Positions 14,528-38,922 of a DNA stretch of 64,000 nucleotides are shown here, in pieces. Under the pieces are notes generated by a model that ran no database searches, was not told where the DNA came from, and saw nothing but the letters and a program-made list of their open reading frames with translations. A program made the translations under genes and the position numbers. This DNA is from Candidatus Poribacteria bacterium (GTDB lineage Bacteria; Poribacteria; WGA-4E; GCA-2687025), in assembly GCA_963665845.2 (NCBI GenBank), contig OY762492.1, positions 832,001-896,000 of the forward strand. The letters are read 5' to 3'. The first letter of the stretch is position 1. Each line of letters starts with the position of its first letter.

Positions 14528-15232
14528 TTAGCTGGTTTCTTTATTCCGTTTCGCTTTCGGGTTCATTTTCGACTGAATCGCCGCGCCGAGAGCATGCAGA
14601 GCCGCTGCCGCGTCGTCGGTCGACCCTGTATGAACGATATTCGTTCCGTTCTCCGTATGCTGAACAGACGTCTCAATGTTTTTCCGCTGCAGATACAGCC
14701 GCGCCGCGGTCGGCGTGAGGCGTCCGCCGCGCGCCGCCAACTTAGCGAGATGCGGTTTGCCCTTGCTCATCTCATGGCGCATTTCGGCATGCGCTTGGAC
14801 GATCGGGACCCGCTCTTCGTTCTCGGTTGCGATGCGGAGCTCAAATCCGTCGTCGGTCAGATGAACGGAGCGCGACACATCTCGCATGCCGCGCCTGCGC
14901 CGTTCATGTCCATGGCGTCCGCGGCGTTCGGGTCGTCCTCGCCGCGCGCCGCTTCTTGAACCTCGGCGCGCATCGCTTCGGCGTTCGGGTCGTCCTCGCC
15001 GCGCGCCGCTTCTTGAACCTCGGCGCGCATCGCTTCGGCGTTCAGGGCGTCCGCGCCTTTCATGTCCTGGTCTTCCGCGCCGTTCATGGCGTTTCGGACC
15101 TCGCCGCGCGCCGCTTCGGCGTTCTGGTCGCCCTCGCCGTTCATGGCGTTTCGGACCTCGCCGGCTGTTTCCTCGTTCTGTTTCTTTTCTCAACATTTCC
15201 TCCGTTGATTTTGCTTCGCCGCCGCTCCGCAT
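14528..15232 (-). CDS. Hypothetical protein with Arg/Gly-rich tandem repeats and a globular C-terminal domain
   Basis: RRGRPERRSDARRGSRSGA repeats (57-bp DNA unit at 14922, 14979, 15036); ordinary-composition C-terminus; real start probably MLRK near 15196 (GGAGG upstream). Confidence 0.7.
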   Translation of the reverse strand: MRSGGEAKSTEEMLRKETERGNSRRGPKRHERRGRPERRSGARRGPKRHERRGRPGHERRGRPERRSDARRGSRSGARRGRPERRSDARRGSRSGARRGRPERRGRHGHERRRRGMRDVSRSVHLTDDGFELRIATENEERVPIVQAHAEMRHEMSKGKPHLAKLAARGGRLTPTAARLYLQRKNIETSVQHTENGTNIVHTGSTDDAAAALHALGAAIQSKMNPKAKRNKETS

Positions 15233-23492: not shown

Positions 23493-23787
23493 TCGCCGCT
23501 CTCCGTCTGGCGGCGCTGCCATCCCCAATCGATCCCGCCTTCGTAAAACCGCTCTGGGTTTTCAACCGCCCAGATCTGTTTTAAGAAGGTTCCCGACAAA
23601 CCGTCATTCCCGCGTAAGCGGGAATCTAGAGGCGGGGCAGAAACCGTCCGCCTTTGTCTGCCGCTATGCCTAAACTGAAACGTCAAGGTCTCGTTCACTC
23701 TTCTCTCTCCGCCTGTCGGCGCTGCCATCCCCAATCGATCCCGCCGTCGTAAAACCGCTCTGGATTTTCAACCGCCCATATCTGTTT
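23479..23787. repeat. Diverged direct duplication of the selenoprotein 3' end / rfaE2 start junction, with a family A REP between the copies
   Basis: KQIWAVENPERFY[ED]GGIDWGWQRRQ is encoded twice about 206 bp apart; REP at ~23603-23626. Confidence 0.9.
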
Positions 23788-24861
23788 ACGGATGATGTAG
23801 TTTTTCGGGTCCAGTTTGAGCGCCGCTTTCATCTGCTCGGCGGCTTCCTCTTTTCTGTTCAGTTGAAGGAGCAGCTTGGCGTATCGGAAACGGCGGGATG
23901 CGTCCTGCGCGTCCAGTTCCACGGCGCGTTCGTAGGCGTTCAAGGCGCGCTCCGCCTCTCCCTCCCGTTCATACAGCTCGGCGCGCAGCGTGTGAAACGC
24001 GGCGTCGTACGGCAAAGCCAGCGACAGCGCCTCAACCGCCTTGAGCGAGGTTTCATGCGCAGGGTCAGGCTTTTTAAGCGGCGCGCCGATCGGTTTTTTC
24101 GCCCACTCTTCCGCCTGTTGTTGAGACGCCTTCCCGACAAACCTGCCTTTTTCATCGATGAGCAGCGTGTTCGGAACCGCCCTTAGCCCAAACAGCTCTC
24201 CCAGCAGGTTGTTCGCGTCAATCAGGTTCACATATTCCGCGCCTGCTGCTTCGATATAGCGCCGCGCCGCTTCGGCTCCCTGTATGTCGATGGCGGCGGC
24301 GATGACGATGAAGTTGTTGTCGCGGCGCTTATCATATAACGCTTGCCAACCTGGCAAGTTGTCCCGGCACCCTCACCAGCTCGCCCAGGTGTAGAGCGCG
24401 ATCCGTTTGCCGATCAAGCTGGAGAGGCGGATCATCTCGCCGTCCAGGTCGGGCAGGGCGATGTCCGGCATCCGTTCGCCCGGTTGAATGGAGCGGGTCG
24501 GCGCCGCCCCCGGCAAGAGAGCCGGCGCCTCCGCGGTCTCGTCCCAACCGAAATGCGCGTTCAGCAGCTCCGGCAAACGGGACGCCGACGCATAGAGGCC
24601 GCGCTCGGTTTGGAGAACGCGCCGGTCGCTTCCGTCTAAAAATATGTTGACGCAGAACTGGTTGATGCAGATGTTGACGCTTCCGTCGGGGAGCGGCTCT
24701 AGTTTGGCGTTGAAGGCGTCCGCGGCGGGTTGAAGCGGAACATACGCCGCGGCGCCGAACCGCCGGATGTCCAGCTCTAGGGCGGTTCCGTTCGCGTGGA
24801 TGCGCAGTTCGTCTGCCTGCGCGCATGCGGCGAGGGCGATCAGGGCGGCGTATATCGTCAT
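23695..24861 (-). CDS. Selenocysteine-containing redoxin (ResA/TlpA-like, WASWUGC) with an N-terminal extra domain and C-terminal TPRs, ~388 aa
   Basis: ORFs 24373..24861 and 23695..24357 are in frame across a TGA at 24375-24373, reading LYTWASW*GCRDNLPGWQ at the thioredoxin-fold active-site position. Confidence 0.88.
24342..24358 (-). promoter_or_regulatory. Bacterial SECIS-like hairpin
   Basis: CTTGCCA-GGT-TGGCAAG; the apical G lies about 22 nt 3' of the UGA. Confidence 0.75.
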
Positions 24862-24934: not shown

Positions 24935-25094
24935 CCGCCTTCCCTCCGACCTTACCCTTAGAGTTAGGATAATTCTGGTTGTGAACGCGGACGGCGCCTG
25001 CGGCATCTAAGATTCCCGCTTGCGCGGGAATGACGGGCTGATTGGCGCGCCTTTTCCCATAAGACGGAATGACGGACCGGCAGGCGGATTGAGG

Positions 25095-27530
25095 CTAGAA
25101 ACGCATCGACAAGCCGATGAGCGGAATAATCGGGAGCTGGTAGATTTTTTCTTCGGCTGAATAATCGTCGTTGTAGCTGATGTCGAGAACGTTGCGGCGG
25201 TAAAGCGCGTTCAAGACTTCCAGATACGCCCCGATCTCCGCCCCCGCCAGCGTCCAGTTGCGGGAAGCCCGCACATCCAGACGGCTATAGTAAGGCAGCC
25301 GCGCCGAGTTGGTCGCGCCGTACACCGGCTCGTACCGATACCCGCCTGCGCCGTCTATAGCAAGGTTCGCGTCCACAACAGGCGTATAAGGCAGCCCCGT
25401 CGCATAATGCCATTTGAACCCGATCTCCCACTTCGGGCTGGGCGCCAGAACGGCGGCGACTGTCGCGACATGCGTCTGGTCAAAACTGAACAGCCGCTCT
25501 TCCTCGTCGGGGCTGTCTTTGCGGGCGGAGCGCCCGTAGGCGTAGCTGAACCAGCCGAGGAGTTTTTCGGACGGGCTGTATTTGGCAAACAGCTCCACGC
25601 CGCGCGCCGTCCCTGTCCCTTGGTTGATGTAGATGTCCACCGGGTCGGAGATGGCGAGGCCGCTTTGCCGCTTCTGGTACGCCGCCGCCTTGATTTTCAG
25701 CGATTCTCCGATCTGCCGTTCCGCTTCGGCGATGAAATGAACGGCGCGGCGCGATTTCAGCCCCGAGTTCCCCCACGGCTCCAGTATCTGATACGGCTCC
25801 GGGCTTTGGCTGTACAACCCCCATGCGAGCCGCAGCGACGATTCGTCCGACGGCGCGTAGGAGAGGCTGAGGCGCGGGTCAAGGTTCACATCGCGCGTGA
25901 GGTTGAAACGCTGTATGCGCGCGCCGACGGTCGCTTTGACCGTGTCGGACAGCGAGGCGGTGTCCTTGAGATAGGCGGAGAGCCGGATCATCGGCTGGGT
26001 CGACTCGGCGCGTATCTTTTCGGCATCGACAAAATCGGGCGCCTCGGAGCCTTCGTCCGGCGGACGCGCGAAGAAGGAGCTGACGCTGGAGGTTCCCGCG
26101 TACATTTCAGCCCCCGCTTCAATCAGATGCGCGTCGTTCAGCGGATATACAAGGTCTTCCCGAAGCGTCCACATGTTCTGGTTTATTTTCAGAAAAAAGC
26201 CCTGCCCGATGGTGAAATCGAACGCGAACAGGTTCTGCGCCAATGTCGTGTCCAGAACGCCGCCGTTCTCTAAGCGGCTTTCAAGCGTCGCGCCGCGCCC
26301 GGCGAAGCTGTACTTGTAGCGCAGATCGCCCGCCAGCTCCGGGTCTTCAGTTACATCCTCATCTTTCAGGAACAGCTGCATGAAATCCTGCGAGCCGAAG
26401 GCGGACACCCGTAAAAACTGCGTCGGCGACAGGTCGTACTCCGCGCCCGTTTGATAATCCCAGAAGCGCGGAAACGCGGTGATCGTGTCGATGTTCAGAA
26501 CTTTGGGAAGTATCAGGTCGTAGTAGCTGCGCCGACCCGCCAGATACGCCGTCCCGTCCGCGCCCAGCGGCGTCGACAGAAACCATTCCGACAGCAGCAG
26601 ATTCAGGTTCGATTTCAGCCCGGCGCTCCGCTTCTCCAGCCGTCTCGGCGCAATTTCAATGACCGCCTGCGCCTCGCCGTATTCGGCTCCGAAGCCGCCC
26701 GCATGCACATCGATGCGGTCGATGATTTCGCTGCTGATGGTTGAGATAAGCCCGCCGAAATGGTACGGGTACCCTAGCGCAATGCGGTCAAAGTAGTATT
26801 TGTTTTCTTCAGAGCTTCCGCCGCGTATGTACAGTTCGCCGCTTAGGTCGTTCGCGGTGGCGACGCCCGGCATGGAGCGGAGCGCCCGGAGGGCGTCGCC
26901 TCCTGTGCCGGGGAGGCGTCGTATGTCGGCGCCGCTGATGGTCGCCTTGCCAGGTTTTATGACAGGCGGGCGCGTTCGGACGCCGGGGTCCAGATCCGGC
27001 GCCGCCGTCCGTTCGGCGCTGATCCGCTCCCGTTCGGGCGGATTGAGCCGCGCGGCGGGAAGGCTTGAAGTTGTCAAGAGAGCGGGCGTTTGCGAGGGGC
27101 GCATCGCCGGCGGATTCGCCGTCATGGGTTTGAATTCGGGCGGATCGGGCTGGCTCGCAGGCGGCGCGGCGCGCAAAGCGGCAGGCTCCCGTAGAAGCTG
27201 CGCCGTTTCAACGATCCCCCCGCCGCCGTCTCCGTACGCCGGGGCAATCTGAATGACCCCGACCCCGTCCTGCCGCGAGCCGTAGAGCAGCTGCGCCGGC
27301 GCGCCGCTTCGAACAGCCGCCTCCATCTTCGTTTTTGGCAGTTCAGGGCGGTCGCGCCGCATGGACGGCTTCCGTTTTTTTTCTTCAGTAAGAACGATCT
27401 CCGGCGCCTCCGTGTCCAGCATTTTCACCCGCTCAATGATGAAGGTGAGCGCCAGAAAGACGCCGATGATGAGATGCGCCGCGAGCGACAGAAGAAAGGC
27501 TGCGCTGCTTCGTTTGCGCCGCATGTTCAT
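25095..27530 (-). CDS. TonB-dependent receptor with an N-terminal TonB-like TM helix and Pro-rich linker
   Basis: Plug motif (IRRLPG..DALRAL..MPGV..LYIRGG), beta-barrel strand pattern, RLDVR, LN and C-terminal F; N-terminal SLAAH helix. Confidence 0.9.
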   Translation of the reverse strand: MNMRRKRSSAAFLLSLAAHLIIGVFLALTFIIERVKMLDTEAPEIVLTEEKKRKPSMRRDRPELPKTKMEAAVRSGAPAQLLYGSRQDGVGVIQIAPAYGDGGGGIVETAQLLREPAALRAAPPASQPDPPEFKPMTANPPAMRPSQTPALLTTSSLPAARLNPPERERISAERTAAPDLDPGVRTRPPVIKPGKATISGADIRRLPGTGGDALRALRSMPGVATANDLSGELYIRGGSSEENKYYFDRIALGYPYHFGGLISTISSEIIDRIDVHAGGFGAEYGEAQAVIEIAPRRLEKRSAGLKSNLNLLLSEWFLSTPLGADGTAYLAGRRSYYDLILPKVLNIDTITAFPRFWDYQTGAEYDLSPTQFLRVSAFGSQDFMQLFLKDEDVTEDPELAGDLRYKYSFAGRGATLESRLENGGVLDTTLAQNLFAFDFTIGQGFFLKINQNMWTLREDLVYPLNDAHLIEAGAEMYAGTSSVSSFFARPPDEGSEAPDFVDAEKIRAESTQPMIRLSAYLKDTASLSDTVKATVGARIQRFNLTRDVNLDPRLSLSYAPSDESSLRLAWGLYSQSPEPYQILEPWGNSGLKSRRAVHFIAEAERQIGESLKIKAAAYQKRQSGLAISDPVDIYINQGTGTARGVELFAKYSPSEKLLGWFSYAYGRSARKDSPDEEERLFSFDQTHVATVAAVLAPSPKWEIGFKWHYATGLPYTPVVDANLAIDGAGGYRYEPVYGATNSARLPYYSRLDVRASRNWTLAGAEIGAYLEVLNALYRRNVLDISYNDDYSAEEKIYQLPIIPLIGLSMRF

Positions 27531-27559
27531 GCTTCGTTCCTTGCCTCCGTTGCGTCGGT

Positions 27560-28933: not shown

Positions 28934-29929
28934 TCAACTGAAACGGAGAATTTTGACGTCCGCTTGTTCAGCTTTTTCGATCTGCGGATCGGAGATGTTG
29001 TATCCTGCAACCGAAGCGAACGCCCGCTTTCCCAGTACGCGCTGTATGATGTCGGCCGATTTGGCGGCGCGTTCAATATCGTCGTCGTTGATGGTAGCGG
29101 AGATTTCAAGCGCGACCCAGACCTCATCGTGTTCGCCGTTCCATGTGAACGCCTTGAGTATAAGGTCTGTATTCCATATGCGCGCATATTCTTCCTCTGT
29201 CAAACGCCCCTCATCTTTCGCGTCATCCAGGTCCTCCATAAGATTCCTGTCCATGTCGTGCAGGACGCTCCACAAAATCGTATGGCGGCGAAGATTCCAT
29301 TTTGTGCGGAGACGCGCGCCGATTTTTTTCGGCATCATCCTTTCCAGATCGTTGCCCCAAAGATGATCCGTTCGGCTTTCCACCGCCTTTGTTCGGCTTT
29401 CTATCGCCTCTGTTCGGCTTTCCACCGCCTTTACGTGGTTTTCCACCGCCTTCAGTTGATTTTGAATCGGTAAAAGAAAGGCGCCGAGCTCCTGCAGCCG
29501 CATAAATTCCGCTTCAAGCGTTTCTATCTTGGCTAAAGCGCGGCGCATCGGCTCCCGTATCCTTGCCAACGCTTCGTTTTGCGCCGCCGATCGTACCGTC
29601 GTATACACATTTTCCGCCGCCTTAAACTCTTCCCACAGCCGCAACTTTTCATCTGGAGCAACCGCCGGGTCCAGCTTTGCGCCCGCATACGCTTCCCTCT
29701 TGACATCCATCTCCGCGCGCGCCGCTACCACCCTTGCATTTTGATCCGCCTCCGCGTTGATCATCCGATCCAGCTCGCCCGTTTCGGCTTTCTCCAAAAG
29801 CGCAGCCGTCTCTCGATCATATTCCTCGCGGGCGTTTTCTAAAGCCTTTTTAATGCGGTCAAAACGCGCTCGAAAGTCCTCCGGGTCTTCAATCAGCCAC
29901 ATGGCGCTTTCCCAGTCGTCCCGCTGCAT
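28934..29929 (-). CDS. Coiled-coil hypothetical protein with a PD-(D/E)XK-like C-terminal domain
   Basis: Helical N-terminus, KAVESRT heptads, TDLIL..VALEIS..DIERA; start set at MQRDD because the longer ORF extends into the MITE. Confidence 0.7.
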   Translation of the reverse strand: MQRDDWESAMWLIEDPEDFRARFDRIKKALENAREEYDRETAALLEKAETGELDRMINAEADQNARVVAARAEMDVKREAYAGAKLDPAVAPDEKLRLWEEFKAAENVYTTVRSAAQNEALARIREPMRRALAKIETLEAEFMRLQELGAFLLPIQNQLKAVENHVKAVESRTEAIESRTKAVESRTDHLWGNDLERMMPKKIGARLRTKWNLRRHTILWSVLHDMDRNLMEDLDDAKDEGRLTEEEYARIWNTDLILKAFTWNGEHDEVWVALEISATINDDDIERAAKSADIIQRVLGKRAFASVAGYNISDPQIEKAEQADVKILRFS

Positions 29930-29975
29930 CTTCCGCTCCAAACCCAGCCCCTTTAATAAAGTATAGCATAGAACT

Positions 29976-30143
29976 CTGACCTCACGTCTTAAGTTGGGAC
30001 ATGTCGGCATGGGAACGCGGACGTCTTCTGCAACGCCTCTAGATTCCCGCTTACGCGGGAATGACGGTTTGGTTAGCGGCGCCTTTTTCCCATGAATAGA
30101 GCGATCGTCAGTTCAAATGTCCCAACTTTCAGCATGAGGTCAG
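29976..30143. mobile_element. MITE-like element (~168 bp) with ~27-bp terminal inverted repeats and an internal family A palindrome
   Basis: CTGACCTCACGTCTTAAGTTGGGACAT ... ATGTCCCAACTTTCAGCATGAGGTCAG; TAGAAC on both sides (one extra base on the left); homologous to 56066..56232; a partial copy follows at 30149-30243. Confidence 0.8.
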
Positions 30144-34116: not shown

Positions 34117-37100
34117 ATGAACGACAAAGTTCTCGTTGGCGTTGGCATCGCGGCGCTGCTTGGCGTGCTGTTTTTTCCAAGCGGCAGTTCGCAGAAGGTG
34201 CAGACCCTCTACGAAGAGGCGGAGCAGTACTTAGTGAACGAACGCTACCCCGAAGCGATTCAAAAATATGAAGAATCGCTCGAGGAAGCGGAAAAAGGCT
34301 TCGTCAAAACCGAGGTGATCGACCCGGACTACAAGACGCTGGCAAAATACAAGATCGCCCACGCATACGCGCAGCAGGCGGAAAAAACCGGCAACGTGGC
34401 GGAATACGACAGCGCGCTGAGCATCCTGGAGGAGATCTACCAAACCGCGACGGTCAACAAGCACCGGGAAGGCATCGTCTTCCTGTGGGGGTACGTCCTC
34501 ATGAAAACGGAGCGGCTGGAGGAGGCGGAACCGAAGTTTCGGGAGCTGATCCAAAACTTCCCCGGCAGCCTGTTCCATGAAAACGCATGGTACTCCATCG
34601 GGCAGCTGAACTACGAACTGAAGGACTTCGACAAGGCGAGAGACGCCTACCGCCAGATCGTCGACAGCTTCCCGAACTCCGACTTCCGCGACGACTCCCA
34701 GTACCGCATTGCGGTGACCTACTTTGAAGACCAGAACTACGATCAGTCGTTCCGCGAATTCGACGCGATGACGCCGGAGGATTTCCAAGGCTCGCCGCTC
34801 CTGGCGGAAGCCAGCTACAAGGCGGCGTACTCGCTGCTGCAGCTGGACAGGCTTGAAGAGGCGATCGACCGGTACAACCGCTTTGTGGCGGACTATCCCG
34901 ATTCGATCTTCCGCACCGGCGCGCACTTCGACCTTGGGACGATCTACACGCGCCAGGGCGACTTCGACAACGCCATCCAGAACTACCAGCTGGCGATTGA
35001 AAACACCGACAACATGACGCTGAAAGCCGAGATTCAGTACGAAATCGGCGACAACTACATGGACGCGGAAAGGTACCTGGAAGCCGCCTCGGAGTACCAG
35101 AAGGTTGTTGAAACCTACCCCGAATCGGAGTATGTGGACGCGGCGCGTTTCGGCGTCGGGGAAGCCTACATGAGCGAGGCGGGCAACAACACCAAAGCGG
35201 GCGGCGAACCCGACACGCAGAATTTCGAACGCGCCGTTCAAGGCTACATGAGCGTCCTGAATGAGCATCCAACCTCCGACTACCGATCCCACTCCACCTA
35301 CCAGATCGCCGAAGCGAATTACGAGATGAAGCGGTACGAGGAGGCTCTCGTCTGGTTCCGTCGGACGCAGGAAGATTTCCCGGACGATCCGCTGGCTCCC
35401 CATTCCCTTTACGCCGAGCTGTGGTGCTTGAGCGAACTGGGGCGTTTTGACGAGGTGCTGACGCGCGGGCGCTCCTTCATTGACGCGAACGCCGACAACG
35501 AGGACTTTGACATTCAAGCCGCCGAGATTCAGACGAAGCTGGGCGACATTATGTTTGAGCAGAACGAGTTTCTGGTCGCCGCGGGCGAGTATGAACGCGC
35601 CGCCGCGTATCCGCACCTGCCGAAGTTTTACGCGACGCGGCTGCGCTCTCTTTACCAGATTGGCGTCTGCTACTTCCAGCACGCGGACAAGTCGGGCGAC
35701 AAGAGCTTCTTCCCCAAGGCGCTGCCGGCGCTGAATGAAGCGATCGAGAAGTTCACGGTCAAAGACCCTGACCCGGACAACACAGGCTTTAACCTGGACT
35801 ACGAATTCCCAGAGCGGATCGCCCTGGTGGAAAACTCCGTTTTGAGCAAGGCGCATGTGCATGAGAAACTTGAGCAGTGGGCGGAAGCGCGCGCCGCGTA
35901 TACGCTCATCCCGGCGCCGACCGAAGAATCGCCGAGCGAAAACTACGGCAGGGCGCAGGTGCTGTCGGCGGAAAGCTTTGAAAAAGAAGGCAATATCGAC
36001 GAGGCGATCAACCTGTACCGCGCCGTTAGCGAGAACGGCTCCCTAGACGAAACATGGCAGTCGCTCGGCGCCATCCGCTTGGCGGACCTGCTGCGCGACC
36101 AGAAGCGGTGGGCGGAAGCGGCGACAGCGTACGGAAACGTCGTGGAGCGGTACCCGTCCAGCCAGCATGCGGGCGCGTCGCAGTATCTGCAGGGCGTCAG
36201 CTTTTACTCGATTGAGCCGCGGACGGACGAGAACTTGAAAGCGTCCGTGACAGCGTTCCAAGCGGTCATCGCGCAGTGGCCGGACGATGTGAACGCCCCT
36301 GACGCGCTGTACGGCGTCGCCCTGTCGCAAAAGGCGCTGGCGGAGTCGGAAAGCGGTTCGTGGGAAGATGTGCTGGCGTCGGTCAATCAGCTGACGGAAG
36401 CGTACGGCTCGCGGACCGACGCGCGGTCGCAAAAAGCGGTCAATTCGGGCAACCTGCTGCGCGTTCTGGCGCAGGAGAACCTGGGTCAAGCCTCGGTCGA
36501 TGAGATTGTCGCGAGCTTGCGTCAGGTGGCGCAGAGCGACACGGCAGACACTCCGACGCGCGTCACGGCGCAGCTGAAGATCGGAAACCTGCTGTTTGAA
36601 AACGGGCGCTTGGAGGATGCGGTGAACGAATACCGCTCCCTCGGCGAAATGTTCCCCGACAGCGATCAGGCGCCGCTCGGACTGTACCAGGCGGCGGTGA
36701 GCGCGTTCAAGAGCGGCGAAGAGTTGAGCGAAAAAGAGGACCCGGAGGCGGCGTCCAGATACAAGCAGGCGGCGGAGTTGACAGCGCAGGCGCTGGCATA
36801 CGCCGACAAGCTGGACAACACGATGCTTGTCAAGATCAACTACACGCGCGGCTCCGCTTTACAGCAGTCGGGTCAGCCGCAGGAGGCGATACAGGCGCTC
36901 CAAGCGGTGATAGCGCTGAAGGACAGCGTCGAAGACCCGGCGCTGGTGGAAGCGGCGTACACGAAGCTGGCGCAAATGTACCGCAGCCTTGGGCAGTATC
37001 AGGAGGCGTCGGCGGAGTATGAGCGCCTTGCCGCGGCGGCGACCAATCCGCTCATTCGTCTGCAGTCGTTCATGGCGCTGGCGAACATTCTTGAGGAAAA

Positions 37101-38922
37101 TCTGAACGATTCCGCGGGCGCGCTGAGGAATTATCAAGCGGCGTCCTCTATCAAGATCGAGAGCGATTTCATCGCGCAGGCGCTCTACCGGACGGGTCTC
37201 ATTCAGGCAGACCTGGCGGCAGCCGCGAAAGGCGCCGGAGACGACGAGGCGGCGAAGACATACGCCGAGCAGGCGATCGTCACCTTTGAACGGTTAGCCT
37301 CCGATTTTGAGCGGAGCGACAACAGCCAGGTGAAACTGATGGTCGCCGACGCGGGCGTGCGTTCCTCCGACCTGTACACGCTGGCGGGGCGCGATCTGTC
37401 AGGCGCCATCGACGAAGCGCTGGCGGCGCGCGACCGCGCCGTAGAAGCGGGCGACGCGGAGCAGAAGGTTCAAGCGCAATACCAGGTGGCGAACCTGCGC
37501 AACCGTTACGCAAATCAGATCCGCTCCTCAGGCGATCCGAACGCGCAGGATGTGGTCATTCTCTCCAACGGAAACCGACGTCAGGGCTACATCGACGTCT
37601 CAAGCGGCGGCATCTACAGCAACGGGTCGCTGTCGCTGGGCGTTCTGGAAGAGGGAACCTTGAATCTGAACTTCAGCCCGATTTCCCGAAGCGATATTTC
37701 GGATGTGGAGCTGTCGTATAAGACGGCGGCGCGCCTGTCCGCGCAGGATTATCTGAAGGCGGTTGAGTTTGCGGAGCCGCTTGATGCGGCTTCCAGCCAG
37801 TCGGCGATGTTCGCGGGATACGCGCTGTATCAGGCGGGCGTCATCTCCTACTCGCTGCGCGGTCCGCGCGATCTTCCGTTGACAGTGGACGCGCTGCCGC
37901 GCTTCGTCGCGCTGGTCGACAGCGGCAAGATGGAGAAAAACGATGAGGAGCTGCAGGACGCGCTCTACTACCTCGGCGTCGCCTACTACGACCTCGCCCG
38001 GGCGAACGATATGGACCCCGCTCGGTTTGCGGAATCGGCGAAGGCGCTTCAATCGCTGGTCGACCGGTATCCGAGCCACGAGGAGGCGGGTCTGTGGCAG
38101 TATCAGGTGGGCGAAGCGCATTACGCGGCGCAGCGTTTTGACGACGCGCTGAAATCGTATATTCAGATGGCAGACCGCTATCCGAATCACGAGAGCGCGC
38201 CGGAGGCTCTTTACTCGGCCGCGGCTTGCCAGCAGCAGCTGAATCAGCCGGACGGCATGATGGCTTCGTACAGACGCCTTGTGAACAGATACTCGAACCA
38301 TAAGCGTTCGCTGGACGCCTTCATCACGCTTGCGAACCATACGTTCAACGAATCGCTGGCATTGAACGAAGCGGTACCGGAGCAGAGGGACGAGAAACTG
38401 AAGATGCTGGAAGAAGCGCTGACGATGTACCGTAAGGTGGCGGAGTCGGATCTGTCGGAACCGGCACAGGCGGGCAGGGCGAGGACCTTCGTCAAAGACA
38501 CCGAGGAGTACATCGCTTCCATTCGCATCGATCCGCTGGACGAGGCGTACGCCAGGGCGGGGCGCAACGTTGAGGCGCTCGGTCCGGCGATGGCTAATCT
38601 GGAAACGTTTGCGTCCGAGTATCCGGACACGAAGCAGGCGGTCATCGCTTGGACGCGCCTTGGAGACGGCAATATGATCATTGCGGAGGCGGCTGCGGCC
38701 GCGGGAGATACCGACCGCGAGATCGAGCATTATGAAAAAGCTCTGCAGTTTTTCATCAATGTGCGCAGGCGGTATGTGGACGCGCAGGGCGTTGAAATGA
38801 CGCCGGCGGATCCGAACATGGAACGCGCTCTGACCTACGCCAACCGAAAAATTGTGGACATTCAGCGGTATGTCCAATCGGTTCGGAAGGCGCGTGAGGC
38901 GAATTCCCCCGAATCGGAATGA
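34117..38922 (+). CDS. Giant (1601 aa) membrane-anchored tetratricopeptide-repeat protein
   Basis: N-terminal hydrophobic helix; many BamD/YbgF-type TPRs (A.Y.IG..Y..A...Y..V...YP.S). Confidence 0.95.
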   Translation: MNDKVLVGVGIAALLGVLFFPSGSSQKVQTLYEEAEQYLVNERYPEAIQKYEESLEEAEKGFVKTEVIDPDYKTLAKYKIAHAYAQQAEKTGNVAEYDSALSILEEIYQTATVNKHREGIVFLWGYVLMKTERLEEAEPKFRELIQNFPGSLFHENAWYSIGQLNYELKDFDKARDAYRQIVDSFPNSDFRDDSQYRIAVTYFEDQNYDQSFREFDAMTPEDFQGSPLLAEASYKAAYSLLQLDRLEEAIDRYNRFVADYPDSIFRTGAHFDLGTIYTRQGDFDNAIQNYQLAIENTDNMTLKAEIQYEIGDNYMDAERYLEAASEYQKVVETYPESEYVDAARFGVGEAYMSEAGNNTKAGGEPDTQNFERAVQGYMSVLNEHPTSDYRSHSTYQIAEANYEMKRYEEALVWFRRTQEDFPDDPLAPHSLYAELWCLSELGRFDEVLTRGRSFIDANADNEDFDIQAAEIQTKLGDIMFEQNEFLVAAGEYERAAAYPHLPKFYATRLRSLYQIGVCYFQHADKSGDKSFFPKALPALNEAIEKFTVKDPDPDNTGFNLDYEFPERIALVENSVLSKAHVHEKLEQWAEARAAYTLIPAPTEESPSENYGRAQVLSAESFEKEGNIDEAINLYRAVSENGSLDETWQSLGAIRLADLLRDQKRWAEAATAYGNVVERYPSSQHAGASQYLQGVSFYSIEPRTDENLKASVTAFQAVIAQWPDDVNAPDALYGVALSQKALAESESGSWEDVLASVNQLTEAYGSRTDARSQKAVNSGNLLRVLAQENLGQASVDEIVASLRQVAQSDTADTPTRVTAQLKIGNLLFENGRLEDAVNEYRSLGEMFPDSDQAPLGLYQAAVSAFKSGEELSEKEDPEAASRYKQAAELTAQALAYADKLDNTMLVKINYTRGSALQQSGQPQEAIQALQAVIALKDSVEDPALVEAAYTKLAQMYRSLGQYQEASAEYERLAAAATNPLIRLQSFMALANILEENLNDSAGALRNYQAASSIKIESDFIAQALYRTGLIQADLAAAAKGAGDDEAAKTYAEQAIVTFERLASDFERSDNSQVKLMVADAGVRSSDLYTLAGRDLSGAIDEALAARDRAVEAGDAEQKVQAQYQVANLRNRYANQIRSSGDPNAQDVVILSNGNRRQGYIDVSSGGIYSNGSLSLGVLEEGTLNLNFSPISRSDISDVELSYKTAARLSAQDYLKAVEFAEPLDAASSQSAMFAGYALYQAGVISYSLRGPRDLPLTVDALPRFVALVDSGKMEKNDEELQDALYYLGVAYYDLARANDMDPARFAESAKALQSLVDRYPSHEEAGLWQYQVGEAHYAAQRFDDALKSYIQMADRYPNHESAPEALYSAAACQQQLNQPDGMMASYRRLVNRYSNHKRSLDAFITLANHTFNESLALNEAVPEQRDEKLKMLEEALTMYRKVAESDLSEPAQAGRARTFVKDTEEYIASIRIDPLDEAYARAGRNVEALGPAMANLETFASEYPDTKQAVIAWTRLGDGNMIIAEAAAAAGDTDREIEHYEKALQFFINVRRRYVDAQGVEMTPADPNMERALTYANRKIVDIQRYVQSVRKAREANSPESE

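Follow-up and report, generated by a model that had tools for sequence, protein, structure and literature searches.

In Escherichia coli, the transmembrane (TM) helix of TonB engages the ExbB/ExbD motor by four residues, S16, H20, L27 and S31, and is followed by a Pro-rich linker that spans the periplasm. The TonB-dependent receptors normally carry a cleaved signal peptide. Here we describe a gene in which parts of these two proteins are joined into one. It lies at positions 25095..27530, on the minus strand, of a stretch of 64,000 nucleotides from a Candidatus Poribacteria bacterium (GenBank assembly GCA_963665845.2, contig OY762492.1, positions 832,001 to 896,000 of the forward strand), which we call the window. 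Comparison with its relatives indicates that the fused gene is real and conserved, and that its origin is documented by unfused and by freshly fused relatives. We lean slightly towards the view that the two-protein Ton contact has repeatedly (three times in this receptor family) become one self-energised chain integral to both membranes, in which the barrel would be assembled while tethered, and the plug would be opened by ExbB/ExbD via a link of fixed length.

Several properties of the two-protein system matter for this comparison. Ser16 and His20 of TonB are needed for function (passages of PMC8928145 and PMC10666116); a disordered TonB linker still transmits force, and the H20A substitution abolishes that transmission (a passage of PMC10666116). 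For the way in which TonB converts proton flow into the opening of a gate, PMC5413942 discusses pulling, rotation and a shortening of the linker. The nearest described relatives in design are the TMH-SHLS-linker-vWA force transducers (TMH, transmembrane helix), which are predicted to dock on the side of the motor; the section of PMC12204202 (Mol Biol Evol 2025) on these transducers describes no fusion of a TonB anchor with a receptor. In a search of the full-text literature, with most subscription papers outside it, we came upon no receptor that is described as having a TonB anchor.

Architecture of the fused gene

The open reading frame (ORF) runs from 27530 to 25095 and encodes 811 amino acids (aa), with the N-terminus that the original prediction had quoted and Phe as the C-terminal residue. 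Its parts are as follows, with the source of each assignment in brackets.

25095..27530, minus strand: whole gene, N-terminal half of a TonB fused to a TonB-dependent transporter, 811 aa (sequence, Pfam, alignment)
27538..27548, minus strand: likely ribosome-binding site, AAGGA 7 nt before ATG1, with GGAGG just upstream (sequence)
27435..27509, minus strand: residues 8-32, TonB-type TM helix with S15/H19/L26 and a basic N-terminus before the helix; predicted uncleaved signal-anchor (sequence, alignment, single-sequence model)
27384..27404, minus strand: residues 43-49 (PEIVLTE), at S+28, where the D-box (the strand bound by ExbD) would be expected; weak fit in the query, full in most other fused members (pattern and position from a passage of PMC10907165)
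26946..27434, minus strand: residues 33-195, Pro-rich linker, derived from the periplasm-spanning domain of TonB; length conserved, sequence diverged (sequence comparison)
26970..26993, minus strand: residues 180-187 (LDPGVRTR), decayed TonB-box position, with G and R where unfused relatives have V/I (box comparison)
26670..26942, minus strand: residues 197-287, plug domain (Pfam PF07715, E-value 2e-9; model)
25098..26621, minus strand: residues about 304-811, 22-strand beta-barrel with terminal Phe (Pfam PF00593; AlphaFold; DSSP; Foldseek)

The original prediction had likened the N-terminus to the E. coli motif S16/H20/L27/S31. The first three positions match, since S15, H19 and L26 are all present, but the fourth is F30 and not Ser (Ser is found there in 0 of 7 TonBs of the phylum that were examined). 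About 7 residues precede the helix, and the uncharged hydrophobic stretch comprises 25 aa (residues 8-32). No AxA or VxA triplet comes after it; the claim that there is no obvious signal peptidase site is in this sense upheld, if weakly, as the scan is crude and also missed the sites of several true signal peptides. Eight alternative start codons lie between residues 35 and 152; not one of them yields a hydrophobic signal, which speaks against the real downstream start that the original prediction had considered.

The linker had been described as basic and Pro-rich. Pro-rich it is, with 24 Pro in the 159 residues from 34 to 192 (15%), but it is only mildly basic overall (24 K+R vs. 19 D+E), with a basic patch at residues 51-61. 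At about 160 residues, it falls within the range of 100-300 residues given for TonB in a passage of PMC10666116. Beyond the linker, the plug and the beta-barrel ending in Phe are as predicted: Pfam places Plug (PF07715) at residues 197-287, with 38.3 bits vs. a cut-off of 23.9, and the TonB barrel at 359-762, also over cut-off. The absence of a TonB C-terminal domain is likewise borne out, as Pfam finds neither TonB_C (PF03544) nor CarboxypepD_reg in the query, and PF03544 has no match either in the related proteins P0005, P0006, P0011, P0270 and P0271. NCBIfam reports nothing over cut-off for the query.

An AlphaFold model of residues 171-811, built on an alignment of 132 sequences and leaving the linker outside its span, places the plug inside a 22-strand barrel (strands counted from the DSSP list) with a mean predicted local distance difference test (pLDDT) score of 93.9 and a predicted template modelling score (pTM) of 0.92; the region of the box position, residues 171-183, is below 50. 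The nearest solved folds by Foldseek are FepA, PfeA and PqqU, generic matches with TM-scores of about 0.7 and 13-16% identity. A single-sequence model of the full protein (pLDDT 34) is uninformative beyond the N-terminal helix, where residues 11-30 reach a pLDDT of about 80.

Origin of the anchor from tonB

Sequence comparison demonstrates that the anchor of the query derives from a tonB gene, because the family holds both unfused tonB-receptor pairs and a recent fusion with a visible junction. In the nearest unfused relatives, at five loci (L039, L040, L087, L088 and L072), an intact tonB, with TonB_C over cut-off, is directly upstream of a receptor with a signal peptide: in L039 (genome G100) the stop and the start overlap by ATGA, in L040 (G135) there is a gap of 20 bp, and in L072 (G153) the receptor is a more distantly related one. 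This pairing is confined to the part of the receptor family that contains the fused genes. A TonB C-terminal match occurs in the flanks (mostly 3 kb, some shorter) of 3 of the 83 further loci, and one of those three repeats a pair already counted.

The TonB of G100, used as a query, has matches in 2 of the 8 genomes of the bacterial family and in 0 of the 5 that bear the fusion. When a hidden Markov model (HMM) is built from the fused N-termini, it ranks the G100 TonB first of 10 test proteins (E-value 1e-12), and run against 14,248 genome ORFs it places one of the genome's own TonBs first among the other ORFs (E-value 1e-7).

As an example of a recent fusion, residues 1-162 of the protein of L089 are 57% identical to the TonB of L087 (E-value 4e-55), the remainder matches the L087 and L088 receptors at 70-74% identity, and the join falls just before the TonB box. 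P0270 and P0271, full-length clusters of 815 aa from different sources, carry the same fusion, with 56-57% identity up to the junction, and confirm it. The TonB C-terminal domain, the signal peptide of the receptor and the N-terminal extension of the receptor were all lost at the join. We have at hand an evolutionary series, from a tonB-receptor operon to a fresh fusion in which the box is kept, and from there to old fusions in which the box is lost.

Repeated fusion and the length of the tether

We built a tree of the plug and barrel with 30 rows (a quick IQ-TREE run under LG+G4, with the SH-like approximate likelihood ratio test, SH-aLRT, as the only support measure); four outgroup rows (P0127, P0128, P0134 and P0139) were lost when the sequences were cut. 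The rows that are fused or adjacent to tonB come together on a single branch (SH-aLRT 99). Its 11 fused rows are split over three positions: group A, which includes the query, group B, sister to the unfused receptor of G100, and group C, placed with L087 and L088. A single clade of fused proteins is rejected by the approximately unbiased test (p-AU 1.5e-35).

By this evidence fusion arose more than once, in two or three separate lineages. Group C clearly represents a separate origin. Groups A and B probably do as well, because the N-terminus of group B has as its best match the TonB upstream of its own sister receptor (E-value 3e-11). It is less likely that A and B share one origin followed by fission in G100, as the C-terminal domain, the signal peptide and the box would all have to be regained.

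In 17/17 full-length fused proteins, the Ser of SxxxH is 186-191 residues from the plug, and the last 130 linker residues are only 18-24% identical between groups; the tether has converged in length. In five unfused TonBs, the same Ser is 171-179 residues from the start of the C-terminal domain. The match in tether length is partly inherited from these similar TonB lengths, though the joins could have landed elsewhere.

Conservation of the fused form

A hydrophobic SxxxH start is found in 10 of the 120 listed homologous clusters. These are full-length, carry the same anchor and come from four sources, and therefore the gene is not an assembly chimera, a possibility that the original prediction had raised and that full-length homologues in many assemblies exclude. 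Among the first 40 homologues, read by eye, those beyond the 10 fused ones have signal-peptide-like starts, mostly with CarboxypepD_reg, except for P0009 and P0014, which are N-terminally truncated calls. These two database proteins are called from internal starts, which drops the anchor. P0009 is almost identical to the L007 protein, which has the anchor, yet is called from a start just before the plug, an example of how the fused architecture can be hidden by gene callers.

In an alignment of 9 fused proteins (A1), with identity to the query down to 39%, S15 and H19 are invariant and the linker is nearly unalignable. SxxxH is kept in every full-length fused homologue, so that the test of conservation proposed with the original prediction comes out in its favor. 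The named homologues are Candidatus Poribacteria. Intact frames of the fused form are present in 5 of the 8 genomes of the family (G000, G008, G104, G132, and G152 with two copies); as for the other three, G100 is unfused, G153 has only a fragment of a close homologue at a contig end, and in G151 (64% complete) nothing matches. A search of representatives at 50% identity adds one further fused member, P0121, among the best 150 of its 20,039 matches. An ESM Atlas search with residues 1-300 returned only plug clusters below 0.9.

Compared with the orthologue in G008, the ratio of nonsynonymous to synonymous substitution rates (dN/dS; rough, from small counts) is 0.26 for residues 1-60, 0.46 for the linker, and 0.20 for both plug and barrel. 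From the model and these ratios, the plug and barrel of the query are intact and under purifying selection. In the reads, one contig spans the whole gene without differences; it may stem from the project behind the assembly, and we do not count it as independent. Parts of the plug and barrel, though not the anchor, are covered in an RNA run, which we do not take as evidence of expression.

These data bear on whether the gene is an assembly chimera, or the product of a chance deletion between tonB and receptor that has no function. All records are metagenome-derived, which would suit an artefact, but the frames are intact in five family genomes, and twice in one of them, the clusters come from several sources, dN/dS is below 0.5 in every part, and the fusion has a repeated origin. 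An artefact or dying gene is largely refuted, and we give it almost no credence.

The TonB box and the D-box

To score TonB boxes we used a profile of 43 distinct boxes from unfused relatives, with a leave-one-out median of 17.5 bits; 5/120 homologues without a match to the plug start and 5/106 without a box are left out of the counts. The best window in the query scores -7.3 bits, and no box can be recognised. In groups A and B together, scores range from -11 to +0.8 in 15/15 proteins, where the maximum of the linker background is 0.8. Among the fused groups, a box is still recognisable only in group C, which keeps the strand LREVVVY (6.2, 0.8 and 0.8 bits). Five unfused sisters score 12.2, 11.3, 8.9, 7.3 and -1.4. 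The order of unfused, fresh fusion and old fusion fits the decay of a disused site, and the TonB box that the original prediction proposed to look for has decayed in the query and in the other older fusions.

We also looked for a D-box-like strand after the helix. Of 14 fused proteins, 10 show the complete pattern (5/5) at S+27 to S+29, the same position as in E. coli TonB according to a passage of PMC10907165.

Proposed mechanism and its alternatives

From homology and from work in E. coli, we consider it rather probable that one chain spans both membranes and that the ExbB/ExbD motor pulls the chain's own plug through a covalent tether. The helix would serve as a Sec signal-anchor that is not cleaved and whose N-terminus faces the cytoplasm, the barrel would be folded into the outer membrane by the beta-barrel assembly machinery (BAM) while tethered, and the linker would span the periplasm. 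S15 and H19 would dock on ExbB, and the strand at about S+28 would be captured by ExbD. The movement of the proton-driven motor would then travel along the linker and unfold the N-terminal part of the plug, so that a solute enters. For BtuB, pulling at the box end of the plug opens a channel (a passage of PMC5413942).

Several observations weigh against this proposal. PMC5413942 also argues that the normal, non-covalent contact has to give way before the plug is unfolded completely. A covalent tether cannot give way in this manner. As the contact at the TonB box can no longer slip off, release would have to occur at the motor or through slack, and either the motor end or a slack linker would have to limit the force. 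This need is a prediction of the model and also a difficulty for it. A literature search turned up no earlier case of a barrel that BAM assembles while it is anchored in the inner membrane. The D-box pattern is only 3/5 in the query and in the two closest orthologues tested, and by chance the linkers also contain 5/5 windows (0-2 of 7 per protein). The box score has flaws too: unfused L088 scores -1.4 and 2 of the 43 training boxes are under 5. In the tree, L089 fills 42% of the columns. The fused gene is not beside exbB/exbD, either in the window or in the related loci read.

Other observations of this kind lend themselves to a different account, in which the tether exists and does not gate in cis: the anchor would park the receptor at the motor or bridge the membranes, with the plug opened by a separate TonB or the channel only weakly gated. 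The weak D-box fit just given would suit it. The recent fusion keeps the box-like LREVVVY, so TonB in trans could still serve that fusion, and three full TonBs are kept in the genome. The genome also has five more SxxxH anchors with Pro-rich linkers (L170-L174; G000:C1:1612066, 3724561, 3321233, 2247491 and 1014357), which carry DUF4159 heads in two cases and vWA heads in three, none of them a transport head. By sequence, the SxxxH anchor is a reused module in this organism, which means that SxxxH marks association with the motor and not transport as such. On the other side, in all 15 older fused proteins the box is at background, and with it the docking site for a TonB in trans is gone, while plug and barrel are kept intact under purifying selection. 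We regard tethering without gating in cis as unlikely, if worth keeping in mind.

The TonB helix could alternatively be an export signal only. Signal peptidase, cutting at an unusual site, or a protease of the periplasm would then remove it, and an ordinary receptor with an extended N-terminal tail would remain. In favor of this account, barrel proteins are as a rule released from the inner membrane before they are assembled, and AxA-like triplets are present inside or after the helix in P0006 and P0007. An export signal, however, needs no invariant Ser and His, no D-box-like strand and no fixed spacing of 186-191 residues in three lineages, and the older forms, once cleaved, would be without a box for energising. 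Such processing is in our judgment improbable.

If the one-chain mechanism is true, the TonB C-terminal domain and the TonB box are a dispensable coupling. A natural one-chain version of the Ton system would dispense with transient docking and have a load path that is fixed, in which the length, stiffness and release of the tether could be varied within a single gene. It would also be a case of a beta-barrel protein that keeps an inner-membrane anchor, and it bears on how substrates are handed over from Sec to BAM.

Genomic setting

Besides its three TonBs, the genome (3.98 Mb, 90% complete) encodes 10 receptors. Its motor genes comprise an exbB-exbD-exbD cluster, with the two exbD genes at G000:C1:2377303-2378228, and one more exbB. 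The other 9 receptors have signal-peptide-like starts and box-like strands, as read by eye. The main ExbB (L034:4528-6251; G000:C1:2375527-2377250) has a signal-peptide-like start and CarboxypepD_reg before its membrane part (C1:2376084-2377250), and a small CarboxypepD_reg protein is encoded just upstream of it. An ExbB-CarboxypepD_reg fusion has been noted before in PMC5087111, where the Poribacteria exbB/exbD cluster is reported as highly transcribed; the passages on this cluster do not mention a TonB-receptor fusion.

The fused gene is flanked by rtcB and a selenoprotein gene, and the neighbors change between genera, differing among G000/G008, G104, G132, G152 and the metagenome loci. In the related loci, the gene has no conserved sigma/anti-sigma pair next to it. 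This is relevant to the idea of a trans-envelope sensor, in which a ligand outside would move the plug, the tether would relay a signal inward, either to the motor or to some other partner in the inner membrane, and little would be transported. A covalent link could in principle carry a signal either way, but a sensor would find only the few residues before the helix on the cytoplasmic side, no signalling domain by Pfam, and no conserved regulatory pair at the locus. We think a sensor very improbable.

Other features of the window are given for completeness. At 23695-24861, minus strand, two adjacent ORFs would be one 388-aa ResA-like WAxxUGC selenoprotein with a tetratricopeptide repeat (TPR) tail, if the TGA at 24375-24373 encodes selenocysteine; NCBIfam NF041054 matches both halves, below cut-off. 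A short inverted repeat, ATTCCCGC-N-GCGGGAAT, which we take to resemble REP or dRS3-type repeats, is found at about 23606-23625 and 25012-25031, and has 806 matches on contig C1. A protein of 1601 aa at 34117-38922, plus strand, has many TPR repeats and, in its N-terminal part, a hydrophobic segment; in G132, a homologue of it is near the fused gene. A short ORF at 14857-15144, minus strand, consists of repeated acidic units (GEDDPNAEAMRAEVQEAAR-like). Finally, at 28934-30010, minus strand, upstream of rtcB, a protein of 358 aa looks coiled-coil-like by eye and has no Pfam match.

Comparison with known systems

With the canonical Ton system (ExbB-ExbD-TonB together with E. coli BtuB, FepA and FhuA, and P. 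aeruginosa PfeA), the query shares the plug and 22-strand barrel, a TonB-type helix with the Ser/His/Leu spacing, a Pro-rich linker, and ExbB/ExbD in the genome. It differs in that energiser and transporter are one chain, where a covalent link would replace the transient contact, and in that a predicted TonB-type anchor stands in place of the signal peptide. By its sequence, it is unlike a canonical receptor, having no recognisable TonB box, and unlike a canonical TonB, having no C-terminal domain.

The unfused Poribacteria orthologues (P0010, P0012, P0015-P0120) belong to the same barrel family, at 42-51% identity, a family with a match in 147 of the 151 genomes of the phylum searched. Unlike the query, they have a cleavable-type signal peptide, mostly a CarboxypepD_reg extension, and an intact box of the type LEEVEVTG.

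In the same wider family there are also receptors with a TonB piece at the N-terminus, composed of signal peptide, TonB_C, CarboxypepD_reg and receptor (P0140, P0161, P0174 and others). They hold the opposite half of TonB, the docking domain without the anchor, and their complete starts look signal-peptide-led, so that no bridging of membranes is expected. This complementary half-fusion, with the TonB C-terminal domain ahead of the receptor and most starts signal-peptide-like, is seen in P0138, P0140, P0160, P0161, P0165, P0174, P0201, P0208, P0227, P0228 and others; TonB_C is over cut-off in 10 of the 23 distant proteins of the receptor family that we picked for the scan.

The TMH-SHLS-linker-vWA transducers, as presented in PMC12204202, resemble the query in combining a TonB/TolA-type anchor and a linker with a head other than the TonB C-terminal domain. 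The difference is that the head of the query is an outer-membrane transporter, so that this chain would sit in both membranes.

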